Assembly: GCA_041690295.1 (NCBI GenBank)
Contig: JAWLHR010000002.1
Span: 32,001 to 96,000, forward strand
Direction: 5' to 3'
From: Bdellovibrionales bacterium
GTDB lineage: Bacteria; Bdellovibrionota; Bdellovibrionia; Bdellovibrionales; UBA1609
Length of the DNA stretch: 64,000 nt
Part shown: one piece after another, positions 1 to 30,161 of the stretch
Numbering within the stretch: the first letter of the stretch is position 1
Layout of the letters: each line of letters opens with the position of its first letter
Program-made: the position numbers and the translations under genes
The notes under the pieces: generated by a model
What the model was told of the DNA's origin: nothing
Seen by the model: the letters and a program-made list of their open reading frames with translations, nothing else
Database searches by the model: none

Positions 1-461
1 GTGATTTCGATGGTCTTGGGGTTAACGACCTGAATGCCTTTAATCGTTTTTGCGCTCCCTCGCGTAAATTCATCCGCTCCTAGAATCACCGACAGTTCTG
101 TTTTAACGACGGAGTCGCCGCGCAAAAGACTTTCAATGCTGGCGAGAAAGTCCTCGGGTTTGAAGTCCGTACCGTCGGAATACTTTAAGTTGTCCCGAAT
201 TGTGAATACGTACTTGCGCTTATCGCGGGAGAGAGTCCAGTTGGTGGCGATTCCATTTTCGAGCTTGTTATCATCGCCGATAATCAAAAGGCCCAAGAGG
301 CATTGGCGCATGACCTGCACGGAGTATTCGTCTTCCAATACATGGGGCGAGAAGTTGATAGGTTTATGCGCGAGGATTTTACGAAAGACCTTCTTGGTTT
401 TTGGTTCCGCAACCACCAGGTTCGGAATAATTAGAATGAAAAATAAAATTACAGTTTTCAC
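1..461 (-). CDS. ABC transporter substrate-binding protein, family 5 (OppA/DppA-like); 5' part only, runs off window
   Basis: Not in ORF track. Manual translation from GTG at 461 (AAGGA upstream): MKTVILFFILIIPNLVVAE signal peptide, then GIATNWTLSRDKRKYVFTIRDNLKYSDGTDFKPEDFLASIE, matching the SBP family 5 signature (A..W..S.D...Y.F.LR....FSDG....A.D). Open to position 1. Confidence 0.85.
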   Translation of the reverse strand, partial: MKTVILFFILIIPNLVVAEPKTKKVFRKILAHKPINFSPHVLEDEYSVQVMRQCLLGLLIIGDDNKLENGIATNWTLSRDKRKYVFTIRDNLKYSDGTDFKPEDFLASIESLLRGDSVVKTELSVILGADEFTRGSAKTIKGIQVVNPKTIEI

Positions 462-472
462 GCCACAATTCC

Positions 473-1180
473 TTAACTTTTTCGAAGCTCAAAAAACCAA
501 TGAACCGAATCCGGGTGAATCGGTCTTAGATCAAAGTCACCGTACGACTGGGATACCGAAAATCCGGCTTCTTCGAATTCGCTCATCAGAGAAGAGAATG
601 GAATGATCGCCGTGGGGTAGCTGTATGTTTCGCGGCGGTTTCCGACTTCCATCGTAAAATCAAAAGTTCTAATGTTGGTGTTAAAATCTTCAGACCAGCG
701 AATATGAAAGGCGAGGGATTGATTTCCATCCAGAGGGATCAAGCTACGGCGTTCATATTCACGGCTTGGTGAATCGGTGCGAACATGGACGAACAAACGT
801 CCGTTTTTACGTAGATAGCAGTGAGCATTTTTTAGCGTTCGTATGCGTTCTTCGCGATCAAGTAGTAATGCGTAAGTGTTAGCCGCGATTGTGACCACAC
901 CCGCTTGATCAATTAAATCTTCATACCGATCTTGAAATCGGCCTTTGATAAATGAAATATTCGTCCGGTCCCGCAAACGCGTCTGACCCATCTCGATCAT
1001 CTCGGCGCTCTCATCGATTCCGATAGCTGGCAGTCCCAAGCGATCGGCGAATTCCAGCACTCGTCCACTGGCGCAACCAAAGTCGACTAAGGGACCGCCT
1101 GATTCGCGGAGAAGACCCTCTATGATCCGGTCATCCGGGTAGGAGAAAGCGCAATGGTAATAACGCGAGAGCAGGTCGAT
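473..1180 (-). CDS. Class I SAM-dependent methyltransferase
   Basis: Track ORF starts at GTG 1060, but the frame is open upstream to TAG at 1192-1190 and contains SAM motif I (PLVDFGCASGRV). Downstream are IGIDESAEMI (motif II) and a C-terminal YGDF typical of this family. AGGAGG sits 5 nt before ATC 1180. Start is inferred. Confidence 0.8.
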   Translation of the reverse strand: MDLLSRYYHCAFSYPDDRIIEGLLRESGGPLVDFGCASGRVLEFADRLGLPAIGIDESAEMIEMGQTRLRDRTNISFIKGRFQDRYEDLIDQAGVVTIAANTYALLLDREERIRTLKNAHCYLRKNGRLFVHVRTDSPSREYERRSLIPLDGNQSLAFHIRWSEDFNTNIRTFDFTMEVGNRRETYSYPTAIIPFSSLMSEFEEAGFSVSQSYGDFDLRPIHPDSVHWFFELRKS

Positions 1181-1276
1181 GGGGCCCTCCTAATCTAAGG
1201 AGATCAGATTAGATTCGCCGCGTTATAATATAGATTGGAGAGGAGGAAAATGTGAATTTTTTCAAAATATAGGGAT

Positions 1277-1306
1277 TTGACGGGGAGGCGGTTAATGGAT
1301 TATACG
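1277..1306 (+). promoter_or_regulatory. Putative sigma70-type promoter (TTGACG-N18-TATACG) for the small peptide / radical SAM operon
   Basis: TTGACG at 1277-1282 and TATACG at 1301-1306; ATG follows at 1316. Confidence 0.45.
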
Positions 1307-1315
1307 CTAGGGGTC

Positions 1316-1423
1316 ATGAAGTCGACGGACAAGTCTAAAAAATCCAGCAAGTTCATTAAGAAGAGCCAAAGGAAGAGCCATTTGGTTGCTCCTAAAACCG
1401 TGGAATTACGCGGTTTTTGCTAA
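1316..1423 (+). CDS. Small peptide, candidate RiPP precursor (35 aa; 42 aa if ATG 1295 is used)
   Basis: MKSTDKSKKSSKFIKKSQRKSHLVAPKTVELRGFC*. The in-frame upstream ATG 1295 (MDYTLGV) has GGAGG in front of it. Stop is 31 nt before the radical SAM start. Confidence 0.65.
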   Translation: MKSTDKSKKSSKFIKKSQRKSHLVAPKTVELRGFC

Positions 1424-1454
1424 GGCCTGCTTGTTTGATGGAGAATAGGGGTCG

Positions 1455-3206
1455 ATGCGGTTTGCTTTGGTATCAATGCCTCTATTCTCGTGCCATAAAC
1501 CGAGTCTTCAGCTAGCCCGCATTCAAGGCCAGGTGCGAAAGCTCGGGCATGAGGCTCAATGCTTTTACCTCAACGTTCATTTTGCAGTTGAAGTCGGGCC
1601 AGGGCTTTACAACGCCATCTATGAAAACAGTGACATTTTGCTTGGGCATTGGCTGTTTTCTCGGGCGGTTCCCGAGGTCAACACCAGTCCAGAATCCGCT
1701 CGTGAGTATCTGAAAGAATTTTCCTCACGTTTCAAAGGTCTGGAGGAGCGTCTTTTTGAACTTCATGATCAGGTAGCCCCAAACTTTATTCAAAGATGGG
1801 CACGCCAAGAAAATTGGGGTGAATTTGATTTCATCGGGTTCACTTGCACGTTCTCACAGCTTGTCCCTGCTCTGGCGCTCGCCCATGCTATCAAGAAGAT
1901 ACATCCTCATGTGAAAATCGTTCTTGGTGGGGCCGAAGTTCAATCCCACATGGGCGAAGAAGTCTTGCGACAGTGTTCTTATGTCGACTATGTGGTCGAT
2001 GGAGAAGGTGAAAACGCCGTTGCGCAATTAATCGAAACACCTTCCCGTGGCGTGATTAAGAGTGAGGAACCGGTCCATTTGGACGATCTTGATTTTCCGG
2101 ACTATGGGGAGTTTTTCGATTTAGTTGAGGGATTGAACGACGAAACCATTTTGGGAAACTCCTACGCTATTCCAATCGAAGGATCCCGCGGTTGTTGGTG
2201 GGGCCAAAAACATCATTGCACGTTTTGCGGATTGAATGGCGAGGATCTCAAGTTTCGTCGCCGTTCCGCGGATTCGATTTATAATGAGATCGTCACCCAG
2301 TCTCGCGCCTACGAACGATACGAATTCGAATTCGTCGACAATATCCTCGATTATAAGTTGCACGAAACTCTTTTGCCGAAGTTGGCGGCCAACAGGGGAA
2401 GCCTTAAATTTTTCGCGGAAACGAAATCCAATTTGAAACTTGAAGATGTATTGCAGTTTAAGAACGCGGGATTTTTTGCGATTCAGCCGGGAATCGAGTC
2501 GCTCAGTACAAAAACGCTTCGAATTATGAAAAAAGGAGTTACGGCCTCACAGAACTTGGATTTGCTGAAGTGGGGTACGCAGCATGGAGTTCGCATCATC
2601 TGGAACCTGTTATATGGATTCCCGGGCGAAGCGGACCAAGATTACCGCAATTTATCAGAGATTCTTAAGAAGATCGTCCATCTACAACCGCCTCAAGCCG
2701 CGGGTCGAATTCGGATCGACCGCTTTAGCCCTTACTTCAATGGTATCAAAGATCGACGATCGTCTGATTTCGATGAGTTGGGCCCGGCGAAGGCGTACAG
2801 CTTGATCTATCCTTCCCATTGGAACCTCTGGGATTTGGCTTACTTCTTTGAGGGCCGCGCCAAGAATAACGTTCAAACAGAGACTTACAATGAGATCTCA
2901 GAGATCGTGAATCGATGGGTATCAAGTTGGACAGCCTCATCAAAACCTTCCTTGGTTTTTAAAAGGGCGATCGGACATGGTCACGTCATTGACCAGCGCT
3001 CGGACCAATCGGATGTTTTTCAGCTGGACGGTCCGGCGTTTCAGATCGCCGTTTGCTTGAGTGAAAGCAGCAAGACTATCGAAACGATTTCTCGCCAAAC
3101 CGGAATTTACCAGGAAACCGTTGAAGAAATCATCGGCGATCTGTCGGATTTGGGTTTTTGTGTCGAACTCGATGAAAAAATAACTTTTCTTCCATTGCTC
3201 GATTAA
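1455..3206 (+). CDS. B12-dependent radical SAM methyltransferase, RiPP-maturation type (TIGR03975/PoyC-like)
   Basis: N-terminal LVSMP..PSLQL, cobalamin-binding domain (FIGFTCTFSQ...IVLGGAEV), EGSRGCWWGQKHHCTFCG (Cx7Cx2C), QPGIESLS, WNLLYGFPGE, RIDRFSPY; C-terminal winged-helix-like segment. Confidence 0.88.
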   Translation: MRFALVSMPLFSCHKPSLQLARIQGQVRKLGHEAQCFYLNVHFAVEVGPGLYNAIYENSDILLGHWLFSRAVPEVNTSPESAREYLKEFSSRFKGLEERLFELHDQVAPNFIQRWARQENWGEFDFIGFTCTFSQLVPALALAHAIKKIHPHVKIVLGGAEVQSHMGEEVLRQCSYVDYVVDGEGENAVAQLIETPSRGVIKSEEPVHLDDLDFPDYGEFFDLVEGLNDETILGNSYAIPIEGSRGCWWGQKHHCTFCGLNGEDLKFRRRSADSIYNEIVTQSRAYERYEFEFVDNILDYKLHETLLPKLAANRGSLKFFAETKSNLKLEDVLQFKNAGFFAIQPGIESLSTKTLRIMKKGVTASQNLDLLKWGTQHGVRIIWNLLYGFPGEADQDYRNLSEILKKIVHLQPPQAAGRIRIDRFSPYFNGIKDRRSSDFDELGPAKAYSLIYPSHWNLWDLAYFFEGRAKNNVQTETYNEISEIVNRWVSSWTASSKPSLVFKRAIGHGHVIDQRSDQSDVFQLDGPAFQIAVCLSESSKTIETISRQTGIYQETVEEIIGDLSDLGFCVELDEKITFLPLLD

Positions 3207-17829: not shown

Positions 17830-18570
17830 TCAGCTTTCCGAGGCGCGAACAATCATGCGCGCCGGAGTTGAATCTGATTCTTCGGTGAAATCTTCATCCG
17901 TGTGCTCTTCCATTTCTTTTATGGCGTAGTGCTGGTTGAGTCCTTTGATCGGATTCACCAGAAAAACCAATGGAGTTGAACGCAACGCCGAGCGCCGACC
18001 GTTGCGTTCGATGATCGGCTGGCCGCTGAGAGCGTTGATCGAAACGGAATATTCAAACTTTCTCACCAAAACTTCCGCCGGATCAAAGGATTTAACGGTG
18101 ATAAAGCTATCACCCGCCGAAAGAGTCATCGTTGTGAACTCCTGAAGGCGAAGCCGCACTCCGCCGAATCCCAGTTGAACGTGGTGATTTTTGCGCAAAA
18201 CCACGAGAGTGTTGGATTCAGTTTCAACTGCTGATCCACCATGGAATTGAAATCCGGCTCGGGAAAACCTTCCGGCGTAAAGCGCCGTTTTGTCCACGAT
18301 CTGGCTTGACGGCGTGACGGCGGACCAGCGGTCTTTTAAGTGTCTTTTGGCCCGGACGTCATTCTTGGTGAAGGTGATTTCCCCGACTCCGTACTTTAAG
18401 GGAGCTGGACTGGAGATGGGTTGAGGCTCCGGCCGGGAAGGAAAATCGTTATAGAGAAGATCCAGACTTATGGCCAAGGCGAAAGCCGCGCCTATTGAGA
18501 CGACAACTTCAGGAAACGTATATTTTCTAACTGTTTGGATCACGATGTTGATATCGGCGGTGGGGGCCAC
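17830..18570 (-). CDS. Membrane-anchored FecR-like beta-strand domain protein
   Basis: TM segment, then VGEITFTKNDVR...W.....I.....LY.G..S.A...F..GS......NT.V.L pattern resembling FecR domains; start uncertain. Confidence 0.5.
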   Translation of the reverse strand: MAPTADINIVIQTVRKYTFPEVVVSIGAAFALAISLDLLYNDFPSRPEPQPISSPAPLKYGVGEITFTKNDVRAKRHLKDRWSAVTPSSQIVDKTALYAGRFSRAGFQFHGGSAVETESNTLVVLRKNHHVQLGFGGVRLRLQEFTTMTLSAGDSFITVKSFDPAEVLVRKFEYSVSINALSGQPIIERNGRRSALRSTPLVFLVNPIKGLNQHYAIKEMEEHTDEDFTEESDSTPARMIVRASES

Positions 18571-18607
18571 TCATTTAACTTTATCTGGTCTATCGTTTGA
18601 TCCAGGT

Positions 18608-21600
18608 TTATCTAAAAAAGCCATCCGTGGCACGGTGAAACTGTTGAACCCGGTTGCGCAAGCTTGAGGGAACGGCCGGGGTCAACAGAGGTTCACGAAT
18701 CGATAATTGAGTATCCACATCCACATAAGGCCACTGATCGCGCGGTTGTTGGGCGATATCCGCGAGATGGTTTTCGGCCTCATCCAAAAAGCGCGTCATG
18801 GCCCGAATTTCCGATTTCACAAAATGAGACATCGATCGGTCGAGCTGACGGTCAAAACTTTCGCTGAACGGAATCAACGGATAACCACGGCTGCGCGGTG
18901 AGCGGACCCGGAAATAGTTTTCACCGCCCCTGAAGACGGTCTGCCGCATCGGGCGCGCGCCCGGCATGGACGTGCCGTTTTGCTCTTCATCCCAGGTTTG
19001 ACCCAGTTGCTCATTGTCCATCATGAGAACGACAAAATCATAAAGTCCCCATGTGTCCTGTACACGCTTGAACTCTTCGTCCGTGAACAGGAATCTCTTG
19101 TGCAAGTGCATGCGCACCCAATCGATCCGGCTGTTATGATTGAGGGTGGCCATCAGTGACTTCTCAAACGGCGTGAATCGCAGATACTCCATGATCCGCT
19201 CGTGCAGCTGGAGCACTTTTTCCGTGGTGACTTCCGACTCTCCGTAAAGCTCATGGTCAAGCCTGTAGGTTGAAATCAGGCTTTTTAACAGTTCGGAGTG
19301 ATTCGATAGCGGGTAAGGTGTGACCAAATCCCAGAAAAGATATTTGGCCCGCTGATAGAAATAAGTTTTAAGCACGGAAGCCACGAACTCATCCTCGGAT
19401 TCGGTGAACGGAATGAATCTAATGAGGGCGTGGCGTACATGGTTCACATCCACGTCCAGACGTTCACCGAACTCGATTTGCAGGTGGGGCGCCAATTGGT
19501 TCATGTAGCGGCTGATCCGAATCCACAAGTCGATATCGCTGACCGTGTATCCGGTTTCGGTGATGCGATCCAGCCCTTTGAAATCGCTCGGCAGTCCGGA
19601 GAACCGGATCGAGTTCATGATCTGTTCCCGCTCGACCTCGGAGATCTCGGGCGCGCGCAGTTTTTTGATCGAACGATGAACGCTCCGCAAGTAATCGATT
19701 TCCATGCGAAGGGATTTTTCAACGTAATCTTTAATCGACAGTCCAAGCTTGATGTAACAGAAGGCGAATTCGCGATGGGCGTAGTTGGCCAACTTGGAGA
19801 CCTCTTCGCGCTTGGCCCGGATCTGACGCAGATAGGTTCGGGTCTTGCTCGTTCTTCGCGTGAGTTCCGCGCTTAAACGGGCGCCGCTGAAACCTTCGGC
19901 GGGAAGGATGAATTTCTCAAGCATCTCGGAATAGGTGGCGATCATCGCCTCACCCATCCGCTCAAGCGAGCCAAGGTCCAATCGCGCGATCTCGATGACC
20001 TCGTTGAAATCCATGTCGGCGTAGCTCAGGCCGAATCTGATCTTGCCATCCGCATCGGCGTTTTTCGTGGCCATGCCGTTGTAGATGTCAAAAGGTAAGG
20101 CTCCGTAATAGGGGGTTTGTTTGAGGTCGGCGAAATAAATTTTCCGGCGCGCTTTGGGCCCGCCCGAAAGTTCGCGGCAAAGGTTCACGAAGTCACGGGC
20201 TTTGGCCGTTTCTTGCAAGCGCTTCGGTATGCGCGTGAGCGCTTCGTTGACTTGGTTCCACTGACCTTCGATGATACGACGAATCGAATCGGAGATGAAA
20301 TCATCGACGTCGATCTTCACCGACGCGAAAAGACCCGTGCGCACGGCCATGTCGAAGGAGTGCAGCACGCCGAAATGATTGGGTATGGAGATGTCGTTGG
20401 AGTAAGGGAAAAGCGGCGGAAGCCGGCCTTCCAGCAACCAGCGGATCAATTCCGCCGATGAGAACGATTTACCGAAAGCGGGAATGTAGATCTCGAAATT
20501 CTTTTTCGATAAAAGATGAAAGAGAATCATCATGTGCGGGTAAGTGGCCGCGCGTGAGATGGTTCGCGGAACGGATTCGAACAAACTCTTGATTTTATCT
20601 AGTTCGACGGTGTCCTCGCGGGTGACCAATAAAGCGAAGCCTTTGAGCGGAAGCGCGCGGGACTCGAACTCACTCCAGATATTTCGAACGGTGGCCGTCT
20701 CCGACAAAGCATGACGAAGTAAAGCGTCGGTGCCCACGGGCGCCGTGAAGATTTCGCTCGCCTTGCGCGTGCTTTCCATAAGGGCGCGGAGAAACTGGAT
20801 CCGCAGATAATTCTCGATCCCGTCGCGGGCCCGGCGGGCGTCGATGTTCAAACCTTTGAGCAATATCGCGGCGGATTCGGCATCCAGTGTTTGGGTCATG
20901 ACGGCATCGAGCACGAACTGCATTTCATCGTAAACCGATGAGATTCGTCCGCTGACCGCCGCCGGAAAAAAGTTCTTCTGGTTTTGCAGCTGTTTGGTCG
21001 TGCGCACGATTCCGTGCGGATGATTCTTCATTTTCTCCATCCAGGACGTTAAATCCGGATGTGCGCGGCCACGATCATCCTTGAAATAACCGGCGCGAGC
21101 CACGACTTCGAGGATCGATTTTTTGGCTGGATCGTTCAAAGCGAAATTTTCATTGGCCAGCAAATGCCAGGGTTTGACGGAATCCAAAAAACGGCGCGCC
21201 TGCTCCTTATCCGTCAACTTTTGCGCAGCCCCCGTGAAAGCGGTTAAAATCAATGAACGCGCCCGATCCAGGTCCTTCTGTTCCTCGGCGGAAGTCGCCT
21301 GGGAGGGAAGAGCCAGGAGGAGATCCATCATCTCCTGATCCCAAAGTTTGTTCTTCAGTTCGATGGCGATCAGAAGCAAGCGTAGACGGTGTTCACGGGA
21401 GCGGGCCGCGATATTGCGAATCACGGTGGACGAGTTCGCCGCCCGGCTGAAATAGCGAAGTCCCGTGCAACTGTCCCGATAGTCTCCGCAATCCAAGAGC
21501 ACGGCCCGGGTGTAAAGTTCGCCGATCCGCTGCATTTCGGGCCGCCGCCAATCCGATTCGGAAAGATTAAGCAAAAGCCGGTTGAAAACCAACAACTCGT

Positions 21601-21907
21601 CACGAGTGGACCGTTCCGTCAGCGAAGCGGCCCGGCGAATGCGATTTTCATCCAGAACCCGCGCGGAGAGAGGGACGATGACTTCTTTTAATGGATCTTT
21701 CGCATTTTGAAATTGGGATTCCCAGGCCATGGCTTCGGCGCTCGGTCGGTCGGAGGCCGAAGGTTCAGTGGCTGACGGGGACCCGTCTTGCGCACGGACG
21801 TCACCCTCATGCCGATGAATCGGCTTGCCCTTCTCGGTGCACGACACCGAGATCAGGATCGGGATCAGAATGAGTATTCGGGTTAAGCGCAACACAAATT
21901 CCCTCAA
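18608..21907 (-). CDS. Large predicted lipoprotein of unknown function (1099 aa), paralog of 22743-26285
   Basis: Signal peptide with lipobox-like ISVSC; helical-looking body; collinear similarity to the 1180-aa neighbour; start overlaps the stop of the upstream gene. Confidence 0.8.
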   Translation of the reverse strand: MREFVLRLTRILILIPILISVSCTEKGKPIHRHEGDVRAQDGSPSATEPSASDRPSAEAMAWESQFQNAKDPLKEVIVPLSARVLDENRIRRAASLTERSTRDELLVFNRLLLNLSESDWRRPEMQRIGELYTRAVLLDCGDYRDSCTGLRYFSRAANSSTVIRNIAARSREHRLRLLLIAIELKNKLWDQEMMDLLLALPSQATSAEEQKDLDRARSLILTAFTGAAQKLTDKEQARRFLDSVKPWHLLANENFALNDPAKKSILEVVARAGYFKDDRGRAHPDLTSWMEKMKNHPHGIVRTTKQLQNQKNFFPAAVSGRISSVYDEMQFVLDAVMTQTLDAESAAILLKGLNIDARRARDGIENYLRIQFLRALMESTRKASEIFTAPVGTDALLRHALSETATVRNIWSEFESRALPLKGFALLVTREDTVELDKIKSLFESVPRTISRAATYPHMMILFHLLSKKNFEIYIPAFGKSFSSAELIRWLLEGRLPPLFPYSNDISIPNHFGVLHSFDMAVRTGLFASVKIDVDDFISDSIRRIIEGQWNQVNEALTRIPKRLQETAKARDFVNLCRELSGGPKARRKIYFADLKQTPYYGALPFDIYNGMATKNADADGKIRFGLSYADMDFNEVIEIARLDLGSLERMGEAMIATYSEMLEKFILPAEGFSGARLSAELTRRTSKTRTYLRQIRAKREEVSKLANYAHREFAFCYIKLGLSIKDYVEKSLRMEIDYLRSVHRSIKKLRAPEISEVEREQIMNSIRFSGLPSDFKGLDRITETGYTVSDIDLWIRISRYMNQLAPHLQIEFGERLDVDVNHVRHALIRFIPFTESEDEFVASVLKTYFYQRAKYLFWDLVTPYPLSNHSELLKSLISTYRLDHELYGESEVTTEKVLQLHERIMEYLRFTPFEKSLMATLNHNSRIDWVRMHLHKRFLFTDEEFKRVQDTWGLYDFVVLMMDNEQLGQTWDEEQNGTSMPGARPMRQTVFRGGENYFRVRSPRSRGYPLIPFSESFDRQLDRSMSHFVKSEIRAMTRFLDEAENHLADIAQQPRDQWPYVDVDTQLSIREPLLTPAVPSSLRNRVQQFHRATDGFFR

Positions 21908-22746
21908 AACGCGTAATTCATCATCAATCGAAAAATCCGGCGGTACTCATCCACATACCAGAGCCGGATGTAGCCATCGTCCGTGAAACCGCCGTTGTCA
22001 TAAGACAAGGTGGCGGTGAAATTGTTCCAGGTTTTAGAGATACTGAACGTGCTGGTGTAAGAATAACCGACGAAGTTATCGAGGTAGCGGGTGACTTTGG
22101 CGCCGAAAGCGTAAGTCGCCTTGTACGTGCGGGCAAACCGTAAATCATTGCGCCATTTGTAAATGAAGAAATGGTCGGGGTTGGCGGTGCCTTTCGAATT
22201 TTCGCGATAAGTGTTGATCAGTTTGGCCGTGTCCAGCGTATGCGACATGCTGTAGCGCTTGTTGAAAAAAAAGAACTGAATGTTCCCGGCGCTGCCGATC
22301 AAGGCGCGATGACCTTCAAGCCGCGCATCCTCGTCCCAGAGCGGTTGACCATAGACCGTGAATCCCCAGCTGTGTTTCTCGAAGGCCGGCGCGAGATAGG
22401 AGACGTTGGCCGCCGTACTGGGATAGAGCACTTCGGTGTAGCCTTGTTCCTCACCTTTGGGAATTTGGCCGTTGATCGTGTCAGCCTTAAGGTTCAGATT
22501 CAAACCGAGACTCCAGTTCTTGGAATATGTGTAGTCCACCGTCGCGCCCAGGACATGCGAGTAAGTGCGGGGCGAACGCGAGTCGGCGAAGTCGCTGGAG
22601 ACTCCGTAAAGCACCGAACCATTGTAATGGTTCAGGGCCGCGCGTTCCTCGGGCAAAGGGAGGACTCCTTCCCGGGTTTTCGCGCCGGCTGGTGCCGAGG
22701 TGGCGGCCAGGATCGCAATTAAGGTGATGAGGCCCACTCGGCTCAT
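21904..22746 (-). CDS. Predicted outer-membrane beta-barrel protein (280 aa)
   Basis: Signal peptide, alternating aromatic/polar beta-strands, C-terminal LMMNYAF (terminal Phe, BAM signal-like); ATGA overlap with upstream gene. Confidence 0.7.
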   Translation of the reverse strand: MSRVGLITLIAILAATSAPAGAKTREGVLPLPEERAALNHYNGSVLYGVSSDFADSRSPRTYSHVLGATVDYTYSKNWSLGLNLNLKADTINGQIPKGEEQGYTEVLYPSTAANVSYLAPAFEKHSWGFTVYGQPLWDEDARLEGHRALIGSAGNIQFFFFNKRYSMSHTLDTAKLINTYRENSKGTANPDHFFIYKWRNDLRFARTYKATYAFGAKVTRYLDNFVGYSYTSTFSISKTWNNFTATLSYDNGGFTDDGYIRLWYVDEYRRIFRLMMNYAF

Positions 22747-25700
22747 GGGACCTTCACTTTCTCCCGGATGCGATAAAAGTCATTGGTCTGAGAAGTAAAC
22801 TGTTTAATAAAGCTGTTCAGGTCGTCGCGCTTGTAGGAATCCAGGAAATACGTGTCGCCTTTGATATACCAATATTTTTCGATCTGGCCTTCGAGGAAGA
22901 ACGGGCGGCTGAGTTTCATTTGCAGCTCGCTGGCTTCTTCTTTTCGGGCCAATCCTTTTCCGATTTCACCCAGATGATTGATTTGGCTCAAATGGTTGAA
23001 GAGTTCGCTCACGCGGCTCATTCGGCGCAAGACCGGCTCGCGGAACACTTCGCGAACGGCCAGGTTCACATACTTGATATCCTTCTTTTGACCGTTTCGC
23101 GCCGCCAGGTCATTCACCGTCCGCGGTTCGAAGACGAAGGTCTGCAGGTTATTCAACTGTTTCGCGAACTCGAGCGCCTCGTACATCGGGCCTTTATCAA
23201 TAGTCAGCTTGCCCTCGCTGTAAGCTGATTTCATGAGTTCGTGGAAAAGAGGCAAGCGCGTGCGGTAGTCAGGTTCAAAGATGCGGCCTTCAACCTCTTT
23301 CTTGTCGTAAATTCCATCGACGCCGAAATCCCGCGCGTTAAGCACGTCGAATTCATCCATCGATTGATCGGCCATGGCGGTCAGGTAGGCGCTGGTCACC
23401 TGTTCTTTGGTGACTTCATAGGTTTCCTTGCCGTCCTGAATGGGGCCGAGAAGATAAAATCGAACCAGTGTGTTGGCATAATCCCTCAGCGGATTCGATC
23501 TGGAGTAGAAACGGCGCCAGTCGATGTAGGAGCCGGTTTTGCCGTTGAGAGCCACCATGCCCTGGCGGATGAAATCGTCGCGATCTCCGCGGAAATGAAG
23601 CGGAATGGACAAACCTTTCGCCACCATATCGTCGCGGACCAATCCTTCCGGCATGAAAATCGATACCGGCCGCGGTTTCACCCGATCCGTGCCGTAAAGC
23701 TCAACCTCTCTTGCGGTCGGATTGGCGAAAATGTCGCGTTCAATTCGCGATTTGATTCGCATAAAGAGATCGTATTTCGACATCCGGTAGCTCAAGCCCT
23801 CGATGCGGTCGAACCTGAAGCCCTTGCTTTCTCCAAAGTGGGTTTCGTTAATTTCTTTGATCCGGGCTTCCAATTCGTTGGCATCCTGGATCTTGAACAG
23901 AGGTTCGATCAGGTCGTAGACCTGGCCCAAATGCAATCGCTCTTCATGGTAGATGCGATTGGCCCGGCGACGCTCAACCTCACGTATGGTTCGCAAGCAA
24001 TCCGCGTAATATTGGTGCTTGGATAAGAATCGCCGCGCGAGACGCGCTTTGAGTGATTCAAGCTCGCGCAAATTCTCGTAAGCGCGGGCGGTGAATTCAT
24101 TGGGCTCACCACGTTTTTTGCCGGTTTTCTCCAGTTCATTCTCGAGGATTTCCAGCATGACACGGATGTAGATCGTCCGGCGTTCGAGGCGGTCCTGAAT
24201 CACATTGGCGATACGGCCCGAAGCGGTGACCGCGTGCTTGAGAACGGCGTGAATGGACGAGTCGTCCAATCCCGCGTAGTTGTACTTGTGCAGATCGAGA
24301 AAATTAATTTCGATATTGGGTGCGTAACGGCTGATCCCAAGCTCGTAGTCGCAAATGTTTTTCAATGCCGCGCCCCGGGCGTCACCGGTGGTCTGCCGTT
24401 CATAATCAGCGATGTCGGTGCGCAGTTCATCAAGGTCATTATCAACGTACTTGGCGAAAATCAGGTCAAAGAATTTGGCTTGCTCCGAGCCTCCGGTGCT
24501 CGTGTTGCCTTCTTTAGAGGTGAAAGAGTGGAGCGCGCCCGTGGTCAGGAGATATTCCCACGCGTAAAGCAGCATGGGTCGGGTCAGCATCTCCGCGTCT
24601 TTTCCGAAGCGGAACCAGGGGCTGGCCACCTGGCCGTCGAAGAAAGCGTCAAGAATCTGGTCGGCATCGATTTCAAACCGGCCCCACCACGAATGAACAA
24701 TGATTTTTCCCTTCATCTTGGCGAGGAAGTAATTCATGACGATCATGTTGGGAAAAACGGACAGGTAATGAATGTTCCGGTTCACCGCCCGGATCAACTG
24801 AACCGTTTTATAGTACTCGTCCATTGAAGAAGCCCGACCCGAGCGGAAATAAGTTCCCATCATGCGCTCAAGCAACTCGATCTGGGATTGCATGAAATGC
24901 CACTGGCTGGTCAGGTCCCGGCTTCGGGTGACGGCGTGCTCGAAAACCTCGCTGCTGGCGATTCCTGAATGATAAACCTGCTCCGTCATGAAACGATTGG
25001 TCTTCACCACCATATAGGCCATGTTGATCCGGATGTAATCGGCCACCATCTTCGGAAGTTCAGTCCTGACGGTTTCGGGATTGGCGTTATTCAACACCAT
25101 TTCCACATCACTCGAGCCAAGATGTCCGCGATAGAGTTTGTCGACCACGAAGAAGAGTTCGTTAAAGAACTTGCCGTCACGGGCTTCGATGCGAGCGACC
25201 AATTCGGAAAGGCCCAAATTCTCCACCAAACGCGGAACCAGTTTGATCTCATCTTTCATTTTAACGAAAGGCAGACCGACGCTGTCGTTTTCTTCCTGTG
25301 ATGCCAGAATCGCTTCTTTGACGGCCTCACTGAGTTCCTTCTTGCTCGCGTCTTTATAGAGGCAGCATTGGGCGCCAAGGTTGAACATCACACGGGTTCC
25401 ACGCTGGAAAACATCGGCCTGCTTGTTGGAGTAGGTCCACGGGTTGAAATTTTCAACAAAGGCGCGGAATTCGGGATCGTTGGGATCTTTGGGTTGAAAT
25501 TTGGCGATGATGGTTTCAAAAATTTTAGCGTGACTGTCGCCGATGTAACTTGAAGCCATCGCGCTTTCGCCCTGGCTGATGAGCGCGGCGAACACTCGGG
25601 CGTACTTTAAGTAAGCGAAGGCGAAATCGGGATCGTCATACCGGTTGCGCTTGTAAACCGCCATGGCCAAAAGGCGATAGCGCTCTTCGATATCGGCGCG

Positions 25701-26285
25701 GCACTGGGCGCTGTTCGCCACGCAGAGGATGGGACTGTTTTTATGAGCCTCGAGTTCGCGTTTGATACGCGAGTCATACTCTTTGGCCAAAAACGTGAGA
25801 ATCCGCGTGTGTCGGGTGTCGCGGCTGAAGAGTTCGGCGTTATGGCAGTTTTCCTTTAGATCGCGGCTACAGCCGGAGAACAATGTCTGATAATACCGGT
25901 TGCGCAGATCTTTGAATTCGCTTGAGCTTTCGCCCGCTTCCAGGAGTGTCAGGAAAGCGGCGTTGAAAATCTGGATCATGTGGGTCATGCGAAGCGTGCG
26001 GTATTGAGGATCCTCAATGAACTTGGAGTTGAGAACGTATCCCGAAAGCGGCTTGAGAATGGTCTCCATGAACTGGCTGCGATCGCCGTTCAACTTCGCA
26101 TAGGCTTCTTTGATATCGAACTTGTTGAATGAACTTTCTTCCACGCTCTCGTCCCGAGGCGTGGCTTGGGGCGTCCATTCGCGTTTGCCTTCGTGTTCAA
26201 CCTTCGCCCGGTTTTTAACCGGGCATGCGGTGAGGATCGGCGTGATCAGGAGAAGTGATATGTAAAGTCTGATATTCATGATCAC
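22743..26285 (-). CDS. Large predicted lipoprotein of unknown function (1180 aa)
   Basis: Lipobox LTAC after a hydrophobic signal; no recognisable catalytic motif; overlaps both neighbours by 4 nt. Confidence 0.8.
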   Translation of the reverse strand: MIMNIRLYISLLLITPILTACPVKNRAKVEHEGKREWTPQATPRDESVEESSFNKFDIKEAYAKLNGDRSQFMETILKPLSGYVLNSKFIEDPQYRTLRMTHMIQIFNAAFLTLLEAGESSSEFKDLRNRYYQTLFSGCSRDLKENCHNAELFSRDTRHTRILTFLAKEYDSRIKRELEAHKNSPILCVANSAQCRADIEERYRLLAMAVYKRNRYDDPDFAFAYLKYARVFAALISQGESAMASSYIGDSHAKIFETIIAKFQPKDPNDPEFRAFVENFNPWTYSNKQADVFQRGTRVMFNLGAQCCLYKDASKKELSEAVKEAILASQEENDSVGLPFVKMKDEIKLVPRLVENLGLSELVARIEARDGKFFNELFFVVDKLYRGHLGSSDVEMVLNNANPETVRTELPKMVADYIRINMAYMVVKTNRFMTEQVYHSGIASSEVFEHAVTRSRDLTSQWHFMQSQIELLERMMGTYFRSGRASSMDEYYKTVQLIRAVNRNIHYLSVFPNMIVMNYFLAKMKGKIIVHSWWGRFEIDADQILDAFFDGQVASPWFRFGKDAEMLTRPMLLYAWEYLLTTGALHSFTSKEGNTSTGGSEQAKFFDLIFAKYVDNDLDELRTDIADYERQTTGDARGAALKNICDYELGISRYAPNIEINFLDLHKYNYAGLDDSSIHAVLKHAVTASGRIANVIQDRLERRTIYIRVMLEILENELEKTGKKRGEPNEFTARAYENLRELESLKARLARRFLSKHQYYADCLRTIREVERRRANRIYHEERLHLGQVYDLIEPLFKIQDANELEARIKEINETHFGESKGFRFDRIEGLSYRMSKYDLFMRIKSRIERDIFANPTAREVELYGTDRVKPRPVSIFMPEGLVRDDMVAKGLSIPLHFRGDRDDFIRQGMVALNGKTGSYIDWRRFYSRSNPLRDYANTLVRFYLLGPIQDGKETYEVTKEQVTSAYLTAMADQSMDEFDVLNARDFGVDGIYDKKEVEGRIFEPDYRTRLPLFHELMKSAYSEGKLTIDKGPMYEALEFAKQLNNLQTFVFEPRTVNDLAARNGQKKDIKYVNLAVREVFREPVLRRMSRVSELFNHLSQINHLGEIGKGLARKEEASELQMKLSRPFFLEGQIEKYWYIKGDTYFLDSYKRDDLNSFIKQFTSQTNDFYRIREKVKVP

Positions 26286-29200
26286 TTCTCCAGGTATTCG
26301 GGGGTAATCGCGAGCCAGTAACCGTTCAAGAGCGCGGCGGATGCGGCGATCTGTCCGATTCCGCGAATGGCTTCATCGCAAACACGGCGCATGGATTTCA
26401 CGGGGTATTTGCCGGGGATGCGATCCTGCGCCCATTTTTCATACTTTTCAAAGGCCTGATCGACGGATTTATAGAACTGGCCGATCTTTTCTTTACCGAC
26501 CTCTTCAGCGATGCCCGGCGGGATGTAAAACCCTTCGAACGCGTCTTGGTTTCCGTCGTTTCCAATATCAAAGTAACTGCTCAAACCATTGCCGGCGAAT
26601 CCATCCACGCAAAGGCTGGCGATCTCGTTATGTCGCTCCGTCAGCGCGGCCTTAACGCTTTCATCAACAAGCTCGTCGCCTTCTTCGTAATCATAAGCCA
26701 CCTTGTAAGCGATCACGTAAGCGTCGTTGCCTGAGTAGAAACGGAGTTTGGTGACGGGATAGAGGAACATGCCGTTGGCCCAGACGAAAACTTCACCTTT
26801 CGGTAAAATGTAAACATCCCGGGCCGTGGCGCTTTGACCGGTCACGAAATCGAAAACCGTGGCGGTGAACTTCTTGTAATGATCCGCTTTCACATTGGAA
26901 TTGGCGTCCGGTTTGGTCGGCTTGATCAAAACCGCCACAATGCTCAATTGGAATTCGGTCTGGCTGTTCAAAAGATCATTGAACTCACGAGGCAGCTTTG
27001 CGGCGTCGTTGGTTCCCCAACGGCTCAGTCCCATGAAACCACCGGTCATGAGAAGCGTGCGTCCGATATTCGTGGTGTCGTTCAAGCCCGTGGCGGCGAA
27101 CCGCATGTTCTGCTGAACGGCGTCCGAAATGATCTTGGTGTAAGTGCGCGGATAAAGCGTGCGATAGAGGAAACGGTTTTCCTCATGATCGTAATAAGGA
27201 TTGGGGAAGAATCCGCGTCCCAGCATCAAGAACGGTTGCGGGAAAGTCAGGTTGAAGAGCGCGGAAATTTTAAACGGCAGGTTGGACATCTGATACCAGC
27301 TGCCGAAGATGTGTCCCCAGTTGCGGTCCGCATCACCTTCGAGATAGCCGCCGCTGACATAACGTTTGTTATGATCGATCTTCGTGTAATCGGCATCGGG
27401 CAGATTCAGGAAGAAGCGGAACTCCTCAAGAGCCACGCGGTTGGCGCGGCAAAGATCGATCATCCCTTTAACGGCGAAGATTTCCTGTAAAACACTGCCT
27501 TTTTTGATCCGCTCGGGATTGAAACAAGCTTGTTCGAATTCCATCAGCGCGTCTTTGTCCATGCGCAAGCGGTTCCAAAGCGGTTTCAATTGCGGATCGC
27601 TGCGCAGGCGCCGGCGCATTTCATCGTAAAACAACCGGACGCGGGTGAACGTATCGAGCGAAGAGAGCCACAGACGGCCTTCCGCTTCAAAAGAGTTCGC
27701 CCCGCCACCGACCATGGAGTAAAGGTTCGAGAGCAGATTGTCGCTGACCAGTTCGAAGTACGACCGCACGATGTCCTCGGCCTTAGAGCCACGATCCCAG
27801 CGGTTACAGAAGGGATCCGCGCCCAAGCTCGCCTCGTAGTCGTTACAAGCGGGGAAGTAGGCGGTCGGCAGATTCTTCACTTGGCCGGACTGAAGGCGAA
27901 GTTGCGACATCGTGGGAATCTTTCCGCTCACCGGAACTCGGGCGAAAACGAAGTCATCCGCTTCACGATCGTAAGTGGCGTACTCTCCTTTATATATGTA
28001 GCGAAGCACAAGTTCGTCATGGGGGCCGGGGTTCAAATCCTTGGCGGGGATCATCATTTCCACGCGACCGCTCCGATAACCCATCACCGAGGTGTAGTTG
28101 GTGAATTCATTCTGGGCCGTAGCCTTCTCGCTCAGTTCCTTCACGAAACGCGAGGGAACCGTGCCTTCTTCGGGGACGATGTTTTCTTTGAACTGGTGTC
28201 CAAGTCCCAGGAAGTGACCGATTTCATGGAGACTCAAATCCATGACCACGCTATCGAGCAATTCGGGAAGCGGCCGGGTTTTACGGGCCGGGGAGTTCAT
28301 CCAGGAGCCCGACTTGTTGGCCACGGTCAGGCCCTCTTCGATGAAGAAGGAGGAAGAGGGTTCTTTTATTTTGGACATCAACTTCGCCAAATTCGGTTTT
28401 TGTTCCGAGGCGTGCCCATCGACCGCCGCATGTCTGAGCAGGGAAGAGCCGAAGTGATCGATCAGCTTGCGGGAGGCGAAATAGTTTCTAACGGTTGTCG
28501 TCTCGGCGGTGGCTTGGCCGATCAAGTCGTTCAAGATCATCCCCAGTGCGGGATTTTGCGACTGGATGTTTTTCAACTGCTCGTTCAAAGCTTCAACTTG
28601 AACGCGAGCCAATGCGGTCGGGTTCGACGACAGTCGCTGAATCTCGCTGCGTAAGAAACTTTGATATTCCGTCATGAGATTGTTCATGAGGGCGGGACGC
28701 GTGCTGAAATCGATCTTGGTGAAGTTGTCCGCCACCGAGAACGTCTTCGGCAGGAAGCCGGCGATCACGCCGATCGGAGAAATCGCATCGTCCGCGCGCT
28801 CCGCCGTCTTGGCGAAGCCGGAAAGACCTGACTCCAGAGGCGTGTAGCGGTTGATGTAATCTTCAATCATGCCGCCGTAAATATTCACGCTGCCCCAGAG
28901 GATTTTTCCGTTACGAACATCGGCGTGAGCCATTCCGATTCCGAGCGGCGAATAGATGGAAAGCCGGCGGTCACTGATCCAATTGAACGAAGGATAGCGC
29001 AAGTCAAACGGATGCTTCAGATTTTTCACCACCGGTTGAAACGCCACATGATCTTTGGGAATGGCTCCGATTTTTCTCAAAGTTTCGTTCCACTTTTCAA
29101 AGGCCGCTTTCACCGTGGCTTCATGTTCGGTCGGCACGCCGTTAAGGTAAATGGTGTGAGTCTTGGTCAAATCCCAGCGGGCGGCGTAAAGTTCGGGCTC

Positions 29201-29950
29201 GATGCCCTCGACTTTGCGACCCATGACGTGAAGCACGTTCATGAAGCGCGCATTTTCCTGGTGGTAAGGGATCTTTTTAAAGTTGGGATCATGATCAAAA
29301 GCGAGGAAGTTCACCCGGAACTTACCTTGAAGTTCACCGTCGGTCCCTTTCATTTCCGAAACCATATGGGTCGTGAAGCCCAAAAAGTTGCGCTCGAAGT
29401 CCCACTCTATTTCCGAAACCGAAGAACTTACATGCGTGCCAAGCGGATAAAAGTTGTGAACCGACATGTTCATCAGATCCAGCTTCATTTTCGGGCGCGC
29501 GGACCAGTGGCTGCGTTGATCATTCTCGATCCAGGTGTTGGTGTCGCGACCATGTTCATCTTTTTGGCGCTCGTAGTAGAAGTGCTTCGTGATGGGGATT
29601 TTTAAAATTTCAGCCCAGCGGCTGCGATCGTCATAAAACGAAGGGTGAATTCTTCGGGCGATCAGATAGTTCTCGGTGATTTCAAATTCGACGTTGCAAT
29701 GGAGGGCCGCGTTCACCAGAGCCGTCATCGCCATTTCGCCGTAAAGACCCTGACCGATTTCCGGAGCCCACGCGCATAAAAACGTTTTCGGTTTCCCATC
29801 AGGATTCACGAAAAAGCTTTTATCGACGGCCTCTTCGACCGGGGGTGGTGTTTCGGCGGCTCGCTCTTTAAACAATTTGGTGCAAGCCAGCGGGCTGGCG
29901 AACAAAAGAACAAATATGGCGGGACCGATGGGGCCTAATTTTATGCGCAT
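26282..29950 (-). CDS. Lipoprotein zinc-dependent metalloprotease (metzincin-like)
   Basis: Start ATG 29950 with GAGGG; lipobox PLAC; HEIGHFLGLGHQF zinc motif, downstream TSVMGY Met-turn; DLRYPSFNW and CNRWDRG resemble DUF4953-type proteases. Confidence 0.85.
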   Translation of the reverse strand: MRIKLGPIGPAIFVLLFASPLACTKLFKERAAETPPPVEEAVDKSFFVNPDGKPKTFLCAWAPEIGQGLYGEMAMTALVNAALHCNVEFEITENYLIARRIHPSFYDDRSRWAEILKIPITKHFYYERQKDEHGRDTNTWIENDQRSHWSARPKMKLDLMNMSVHNFYPLGTHVSSSVSEIEWDFERNFLGFTTHMVSEMKGTDGELQGKFRVNFLAFDHDPNFKKIPYHQENARFMNVLHVMGRKVEGIEPELYAARWDLTKTHTIYLNGVPTEHEATVKAAFEKWNETLRKIGAIPKDHVAFQPVVKNLKHPFDLRYPSFNWISDRRLSIYSPLGIGMAHADVRNGKILWGSVNIYGGMIEDYINRYTPLESGLSGFAKTAERADDAISPIGVIAGFLPKTFSVADNFTKIDFSTRPALMNNLMTEYQSFLRSEIQRLSSNPTALARVQVEALNEQLKNIQSQNPALGMILNDLIGQATAETTTVRNYFASRKLIDHFGSSLLRHAAVDGHASEQKPNLAKLMSKIKEPSSSFFIEEGLTVANKSGSWMNSPARKTRPLPELLDSVVMDLSLHEIGHFLGLGHQFKENIVPEEGTVPSRFVKELSEKATAQNEFTNYTSVMGYRSGRVEMMIPAKDLNPGPHDELVLRYIYKGEYATYDREADDFVFARVPVSGKIPTMSQLRLQSGQVKNLPTAYFPACNDYEASLGADPFCNRWDRGSKAEDIVRSYFELVSDNLLSNLYSMVGGGANSFEAEGRLWLSSLDTFTRVRLFYDEMRRRLRSDPQLKPLWNRLRMDKDALMEFEQACFNPERIKKGSVLQEIFAVKGMIDLCRANRVALEEFRFFLNLPDADYTKIDHNKRYVSGGYLEGDADRNWGHIFGSWYQMSNLPFKISALFNLTFPQPFLMLGRGFFPNPYYDHEENRFLYRTLYPRTYTKIISDAVQQNMRFAATGLNDTTNIGRTLLMTGGFMGLSRWGTNDAAKLPREFNDLLNSQTEFQLSIVAVLIKPTKPDANSNVKADHYKKFTATVFDFVTGQSATARDVYILPKGEVFVWANGMFLYPVTKLRFYSGNDAYVIAYKVAYDYEEGDELVDESVKAALTERHNEIASLCVDGFAGNGLSSYFDIGNDGNQDAFEGFYIPPGIAEEVGKEKIGQFYKSVDQAFEKYEKWAQDRIPGKYPVKSMRRVCDEAIRGIGQIAASAALLNGYWLAITPEYLEK

Positions 29951-29972
29951 AGAATTTCCCTCGCGGTTATTC

Positions 29973-29988
29973 TGCAGGGGTAGTGCCA
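29973..29988 (-). promoter_or_regulatory. Sigma54 (-24/-12) promoter for the antisense lipoprotein/protease operon
   Basis: Minus strand TGGCAC-TACCC-CTGCA with exact GG-N10-GC spacing, 22 nt upstream of ATG 29950; AT-rich tract further upstream. Confidence 0.7.
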
Positions 29989-30161
29989 CCGTTCCCTGAA
30001 TTTCTTTTAAACATTTAAAACGACTAGGTTTTTTAAGATAAATAAACGGTCTCCACGCGGAAAAATCGGCGTAACTTGTGGGAATCGCCGTGATTTTCCA
30101 CCTGGACCGTTGACAGGGACCGACAATTTTTGGCTTTCCTAATGATTTAGAGCACTTAGGG

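Follow-up and report, generated by a model that had tools for sequence, protein, structure and literature searches.

In a 64,000-nucleotide stretch of a Bdellovibrionales genome (assembly GCA_041690295.1, contig JAWLHR010000002.1, positions 32,001 to 96,000; the whole stretch is referred to as the window, and coordinates are counted from its first letter), we identified a short open reading frame (ORF) for a putative precursor peptide directly upstream of a gene for a B12-dependent radical S-adenosylmethionine (SAM) C-methyltransferase. These two genes are part of a block of six, inserted as one unit, which also encodes a second methyltransferase, a peptide-binding protein, an exporter and a sensor kinase. 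We put the chance at about even that the product of the short ORF is C- and N-methylated by this block, which would then export the peptide and sense it periplasmically as a self-signal. An earlier interpretation made from the DNA letters alone (the sequence-only reading) had proposed a stand-alone pair for a peptide synthesized by ribosomes and modified after translation (RiPP). The ORF and the enzyme gene of that pair are confirmed, but the methyltransferase, the binding protein, the exporter and the kinase had been missed, and their presence shifts the reading from a stand-alone RiPP to a make-and-sense module. The cassette is a real, undescribed variant, a methylated-peptide member of its cassette type; at the level of search listings, we found no description of the precursor or of such cassettes in the literature, and the published list of short clavusporin precursors may bear on novelty. 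The features are the following, where G000 denotes the genome under study.

1295..1423, plus strand: putative precursor peptide, 42 aa (alternative start at 1316, 35 aa)
1455..3206, plus strand: B12-dependent radical SAM C-methyltransferase, TIGR03975, 583 aa, Cx7Cx2C, with a RiPP recognition element (RRE)-like C-terminal domain (residues ~497-580)
1181..1294, no strand: divergent control region between the methyltransferase and the precursor
473..1180, minus strand: class I SAM methyltransferase, CorZ/CypM/CgnL-like, with an inferred ATC start
1..461, minus strand: 5′ part of the gene for an OppA-like family-5 peptide-binding protein, 519 aa (full gene G000:C2:30902-32461, running off the left end of the window)
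G000:C2:29788-30924, same strand as the binding protein, outside the window: major facilitator superfamily (MFS) transporter, 378 aa
G000:C2:28440-29798, same strand as the binding protein, outside the window: sensor histidine kinase with two transmembrane segments, 452 aa

The six genes span 6,767 bp with a GC content of 0.471 compared to 0.525 for the genome, which is 99.9% complete. The two genes on either side of the block lie next to each other in 13 of 17 congeners, leaving an empty site; of the other four, two give no information because of contig ends, and in two the left flank gene is missing and there is no cassette match. No flanking direct repeat of at least 9 nt was found at the island ends. 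Near-identical pieces of the block are present in seven runs from five studies (one possibly the source sample), and 8 of the 15 differences within the six genes are synonymous at low depth. Searches of the genome for a Nif11 precursor and for an MNIO (DUF692, PF05114) found neither, while their positive controls were recovered; searches for NHLP, DUF5825 (PF19142) and PEARL-type proteins (PF04738, PF14028) were also empty, with controls that were silent. Neither an MNIO nor a PEARL is encoded in the block. The genome has one S9 peptidase, on another contig, and a B12-cap protein with the size of a methionine synthase is also encoded by the host.

The sequence-only reading had described a 35-aa ORF, with a 42-aa form from ATG 1295, that ends 31 nt before the radical SAM gene. 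Both forms are present in the sequence, the shorter one from ATG 1316, with a stop that ends at 1423, and the enzyme ATG at 1455 gives the same 31-nt gap. The 42-aa form appears the likelier product, because a GGAGG, the better ribosome site of the two starts, lies 6 nt upstream of ATG 1295 and because this form is present in the protein collection (P0263). The context of ATG 1316, TAGGGGTC, is common to the enzyme start, and a 35-aa product is possible as well. The 42-aa peptide has a net charge of +8 and is laid out as a Lys/Ser-rich leader followed by LVAPKTV (residues 30-36) and the tail ELRGFC, with no Sec signal. An ATG-initiated ORF of at least 35 aa ending at most 60 nt from the next gene arose in 8.8% of 5,000 shuffles of the 274-nt gap, and the bare ORF is therefore weak evidence. 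A strong Shine-Dalgarno (SD) sequence together with a 30- to 60-aa ORF ending near the next gene was found in 4 of 299 comparable gap-strand cases in the genome, using criteria set after the ORF had been seen; one of the other three cases is the precursor of a sister cassette. Support from codon usage is small (+2.3 to +4.5 bits over 34 codons). The peptide matched zero families in NCBIfam and Pfam. Its shortness is not unusual for substrates of Cx7Cx2C B12 enzymes, given that clavusporin MpcA has 39 aa (PMC10849626).

The enzyme matches TIGR03975 over model positions 2-606 with 505 bits (cut-off, 281.85), in line with the family named by the sequence-only reading, and its Cx7Cx2C motif is C247-x7-C255-x2-C258. 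It contains the Pfam domains B12-binding (PF02310) and Radical_SAM (PF04055), and its fold matches those of OxsB, TsrM, CysS and TokK. In an AlphaFold model with a predicted local distance difference test score (pLDDT) of 90, the tail (residues 499-578) folds as three strands, three helices and a two-strand wing. This RRE/winged-helix topology, on which the RRE call is based, suggests that the tail is RRE-like, as had been anticipated; its neighbours in ESM feature space include DUF5825 clusters (0.90). The alpha3/wing region of this RRE-like domain has a net charge of −7 compared to −6 in clade mates and a mean of −3.0 (standard deviation, 2.5) in 241 other homologs, 14 of which are at −7 or lower. 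The proposal that the short ORF encodes the substrate of this enzyme gained from the comparison: the ORF is the only one of at least 25 aa in the gaps of the co-inserted block, no Nif11 precursor was found in the genome, and the acidic alpha3/wing faces a peptide of charge +8.

The closest homologs of the enzyme are 49, 46 and 43% identical, and they branch with it at a Shimodaira-Hasegawa-like approximate likelihood ratio of 98 in a quick tree calculated without bootstrap, in which the nine rows labelled near sit inside a 15-row branch and do not form one clade alone. The closest of these proteins (P0002, 49%) ends at residues 590-661 in a fused HisKA H-box, which belongs to the subfamily of the cassette kinases and comes without an ATPase domain; the five best matches of this H-box in G000 are the five cassette-type kinases. 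No full-length ortholog of the enzyme was detected in 60 relatives or in the 384 genomes of the order, and 432 genomes of other groups gave three matches (G742, G226 and G700). The matches in G226 and G700 were set aside, being not cassettes among the matches listed. More distant homologs are found at 79 loci in genome contigs (30-40% identity) and at least 80 loci in 16 of 64 parts of the metagenome collection (31-38% identity), and none was found in viral contigs. By motif scan, no similar peptide was present beside the enzyme homologs in 189 loci, nor did a scan for Lys-rich ORFs at 159 loci find one, its four matches being one unrelated family.

Lys-rich ORFs of 45-49 aa also lie near sub-cutoff TIGR03975-like enzymes with shorter Cys spacing in G224 (L194:10936-11073) and G093 (L191:3822-4143); none ends in Cys, and both G093 ORFs have a double-Gly site. 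G371 contains tandem pairs of sub-cutoff TIGR03975-like enzymes.

On the opposite strand, the methyltransferase frame is open from 1180 to 473, and an AGGAGG located 5 nt before an ATC codon marks the inferred start. Gene callers truncate the protein to 175-195 aa, and motif I is missing from the product in the collection (P0264, 175 aa), for which Pfam gave no match. An independent contig (run X5, depth 2.4) spans the start with two changes, both synonymous, which makes an assembly error at this position unlikely. The top three Protein Data Bank matches are CorZ (9sot), CypM (7wzg) and CgnL (7pd7); a single-sequence fold model was unusable (pLDDT 46), and a homolog search returned only the protein itself at E 1e-5 under a length limit that excluded the fused P0124. 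Permease genes do not adjoin the gene for the OppA-like binding protein. A search for MFS homologs in 300 genomes gave one weak match.

In the divergent control region, a sigma70-like site at 1256-1227 (minus strand) is at chance level, as are the promoter and terminator scans. A 9-bp hairpin within 1160-1240 (minus strand; z, −2.0) abuts the methyltransferase SD, and this hairpin together with the ATC start could possibly dampen translation. Just upstream of the precursor, there is a mini-ORF at 1252-1272 (plus strand) of six codons from GTG, placed 5 nt after a perfect SD, AGGAGG (region 1241-1272), and an ATG-TGA occurs 3 nt after this AGGAGG. The mini-ORF may be regulatory or a chance occurrence.

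A homologous cassette is present in G742, which belongs to another class. There, a 122-aa Sec-type ORF is followed by genes for a 790-aa radical SAM-methyltransferase fusion, a substrate-binding protein (SBP) and a hybrid kinase. The fusion is 34% identical to the radical SAM enzyme and 30% identical to the methyltransferase (E 4e-29), scores 488 bits against TIGR03975 and takes the place of the last RRE helix. No SBP found is closer than that of G742 (269 bits compared to 139 for the next), and the G742 kinase is the only one in the pool with a sensor half that matches the kinase of the G000 block (E 9e-8). The linkage of enzyme, methyltransferase, SBP and kinase thus exists in two classes. 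The 10-kb G742 contig encodes no MFS protein, which fits Sec export in G742 and MFS export in G000. Compared with residues 30-36 of the 42-aa peptide, the G742 precursor, which reads LSAKKIV there, has four of seven residues in common near its C terminus (LxAxKxV). Short ORFs ending in Cys had been expected beside close homologs of the enzyme; this expectation failed in the one cassette homolog reached, because the G742 precursor has neither a terminal Cys nor a Cys in its tail. The end of the G742 precursor is overlapped by a frame of 18 aa with a weak SD, which was set aside as a chance frame.

The kinase-SBP core recurs with other modifiers. Among the four closest kinase paralogs in G000, three lie with a family-5 SBP, and three with a small Sec-type ORF and a candidate modifier (YcaO, radical SAM or ICMT-like). 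Of 20 loci centred on homologs of the SBP or the kinase in relatives, 14 have an SBP gene next to a kinase gene. A sigma54 regulator is encoded in some sister cassettes. The locus G000:C14:72669-76823 (L202) contains a family-5 SBP gene, two ORFs that together make up a split kinase, and an MFS gene in divergent orientation, with no enzyme or precursor seen; it is possibly a listener-only or decayed cassette.

One of the closest described counterparts is clavusporin biosynthesis in actinobacteria (mpcA/B/C/P/T; PMC10849626), which yields surfactants from a 39-aa precursor by means of a Cx7Cx2C B12 enzyme that beta-methylates Pro, Val, Ile and Thr, with an MFS gene in the cluster. Unlike that system, the block here has no S9 peptidase, its leader is basic, no acidic follower is present, and a candidate N-methyltransferase, an SBP and a kinase are added; no DUF5825 partner was found in the genome, with the silent control mentioned above, and a dacB-like core gene (named by eye) directly follows the enzyme gene. 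The Val/Ile/Thr/Pro-rich core of clavusporins is matched in part. As for the proteusin C-methyltransferases PoyB and PoyC (PMC11285071), the likeness is that our enzyme scores above the TIGR03975 cut-off and has Cx7Cx2C, the motif reported for PoyC; in contrast to proteusins, the precursor here is ~40 aa, no epimerase is encoded in the block, and the Nif11 and NHLP searches gave the results above. As in the pearlin 3-thiahomoleucine pathway (TmoA/B/H/I/S/D/G; PMC9303977), a Cys-ending peptide is accompanied by a class I methyltransferase together with a B12 radical SAM enzyme, whereas the Cys is encoded here and added by a PEARL there, and an MNIO was not found here. TmoD differs by its description as well: its substrate is an S-methyl thioether, and it is reported to be a singleton in its network. 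The best but distant matches of the second methyltransferase, CorZ/BytZ (myxarylin; PMC12951456), CgnL (crocagin; PMC10070186) and CypM (PMC11285071), are N-terminal methyltransferases of RiPP cores; unlike in their systems, there is no P450, dioxygenase or linaridin dehydratase in the block. The basic leader of crocagin CgnA, proposed to contact an acidic patch of the crocagin enzymes (PMC10070186), is a likeness, and in myxarylin the leader is likely removed by a prolyl oligopeptidase (PMC12951456). Aminopyruvatide was rejected as a comparison, as the partial source offered no usable similarity. The cluster would work like clavusporin biosynthesis with an N-methyl cap added, yet it is not a clavusporin, proteusin or pearlin cluster.

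Our reading of the block follows family chemistry. The basic leader would bind the acidic RRE, and the enzyme would transfer methyl groups from methylcobalamin to beta-carbons in LVAPKTV. The best candidate sites would be Val31, Pro33, Thr35 and Val36, based on the residues modified by MpcB, PoyC and the bottromycin enzymes, which are Val, Pro or Thr (PMC10849626, PMC11285071). A host protease would remove the leader, and the CorZ/CypM-like enzyme would then N-methylate the new N terminus. The MFS protein would export the product, replacing the Sec signal of the sister precursors; the orphan OppA-like protein would bind the product and switch the kinase, which would signal to a regulator encoded elsewhere.

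In peptide quorum sensing of the agr and ComQXPA types, a peptide is modified, exported and sensed through a membrane kinase, and in the LuxP-LuxQ pair a periplasmic binding protein acts as co-receptor of a sensor kinase. Precursor, modifier, exporter and sensor kinase are genetically linked here, as in peptide quorum-sensing systems. The differences from these systems are the Gram-negative host, the proposed mark of radical C-methylation, the putative receptor of OppA type and the lack of a regulator in the block.

Several observations weigh against a methylated self-signal. No precursor homolog was found among 5.8 billion proteins, in the 189 loci or elsewhere in the genome, and one low-depth contig carries the change E37Q in the peptide. 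The charge of the whole RRE (−7) is only mildly unusual. The LxAxKxV match was noticed post hoc and arises in 1.3% of 5,000 shuffles, and the G742 precursor has another length, another export route and another tail than the 42-aa peptide. Among the enzyme neighbourhoods covered, all of them of homologs more distant than the three closest (43-49%), a single homologous cassette was met; as for generality, 0 of 20 weaker B12 radical SAM loci in relatives have the cassette layout. The methyltransferase frame has no ATG, GTG or TTG before motif I, its matches to named enzymes are distant (E 3e-8 to 5e-6), and the daptide methyltransferase model scores 47 bits against a cut-off of 175. Finally, the six-gene block encodes neither a response regulator nor a protease, and an MpcC-type partner was not found, although MpcB requires one (PMC10849626).

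The alternative that survives best, which we nevertheless regard as rather unlikely, is that the peptide is methylated in the same manner and the product is an effector (an antibiotic, a clavusporin-like surfactant or a prey-directed peptide), with the SBP and kinase sensing something else or serving self-protection. The characterised products of this enzyme type are, in the partial sources available, membrane-active peptides, antibiotics or surfactants and not signals; clavusporins, which derive from comparable components (a 39-aa precursor, a Cx7Cx2C B12 enzyme and an MFS protein), are cationic surfactants (PMC10849626), and the activity of cypemycin needs methylation by CypM (PMC11285071). 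Set against these precedents, co-variation with the enzymes is seen for the SBP and the sensor half of the kinase when G000 is compared with G742, the closest enzyme homolog carries a fused H-box, sister cassettes combine different enzymes with the same SBP-kinase core, and the peptide core is less hydrophobic than that of clavusporin.

It is unlikely that the island is decaying or incomplete and yields no product, with an ORF that arose by chance or is a relic and a methyltransferase gene that is not translated. The shuffle frequency of the bare ORF, its lack of homologs, the ATC start, the missing protease and regulator, and the sister cassette on C14 with its split kinase and no enzyme all fit decay. 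However, all six frames are open, an SD plus ORF occurs in so few gaps (4 of 299), near-identical pieces recur in runs that come from five studies (the source sample may be among them), and the changes in the independent contig over the methyltransferase start are synonymous, as are 3 of 4 single-nucleotide polymorphisms in the methyltransferase gene (a tiny number at low depth).

We consider it very unlikely that the target is the terminal Cys, an idea that the sequence-only reading had taken from pearlin. By the logic of TmoS and TmoD, the class I enzyme would S-methylate Cys42 and the B12 enzyme would extend it to a branched S-alkyl group, giving a prenyl-cysteine-like tail. The block has both enzyme types and a peptide with a C-terminal Cys, TmoS and then TmoD act in this way on a peptide C terminus (PMC9303977), and a proteusin S-methyltransferase, PtyS, exists (PMC11285071). 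The proposal nonetheless fared poorly: TmoS did not act on a plain C-terminal Cys and needs the product of an MNIO, none of which was found in this genome, and TmoD acts only after excision by TmoHI and S-methylation by TmoS (PMC9303977); moreover, Cys is absent from the tail of the G742 precursor that lies beside the fused enzymes, the methyltransferase resembles N-terminal methyltransferases, and a terminal Cys is likewise missing from the Lys-rich peptides of G224 and G093 that lie beside TIGR03975-like enzymes.

Least probable of all is that the substrate is encoded elsewhere, by another cassette's Sec-type precursor or the mini-ORF at 1252-1272, and that the 42-aa ORF is a helper or regulatory peptide: the Sec-type 122-aa precursor of G742, the three Sec-type ORFs in other G000 cassettes, the perfect SD of the mini-ORF and the very short core on which CorZ works (PMC12951456) would fit, but the Sec-type ORFs of the other G000 cassettes each have an enzyme of their own beside them, the place of the precursor directly upstream of the enzyme is taken here by the 42-aa ORF, as it is in G742 by an ORF with the same LxAxKxV stretch, and the block was inserted as a unit.

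If the block does make and sense its own methylated peptide, it provides a compact and testable case in which a Gram-negative lineage uses a peptide signal with a chemical modification, the mark being methylation by B12-radical chemistry. A broader view, which we hold only tentatively, is that of a modular system in predatory-type Gram-negatives, in which radical C-methylation and N-methylation may write an identity code on an LxAxKxV core that an orphan OppA-like protein and a kinase read, with a swappable precursor that is either a Sec-exported 122-aa protein or a leader-only 42-aa peptide that has an MFS exporter to itself. Nature offers an experiment on export route and enzyme fusion in the pair of G000 and G742. 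Because it appears to carry its own RRE and has no partner gene, the enzyme could serve for the beta-methylation of short peptides as a simple tool made of one protein. Annotation is likely to miss parts of such cassettes, since the ATC start truncates the methyltransferase in gene calling.

Other loci have related small-protein arrangements. At G000:C4:28663-34341 (L200), L238 and L239, genes for a Sec-type small protein, an ICMT/PEMT-like membrane methyltransferase, alpha/beta hydrolases and a kinase occur together, and L238 and L239 additionally contain an SBP and a response regulator. In G538 (L251:7544-10549), a 54-aa acidic ORF with a Gly-rich tail end precedes genes for a radical SAM protein and an ABC-type transporter. 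Elsewhere in the window, five opposite-strand genes (17830-29989, minus strand) lie inside a cell-division gene cluster between murD-like and ftsW-like genes (named by eye), and three of them encode proteins of 1,099-1,235 aa with signal-like N termini.

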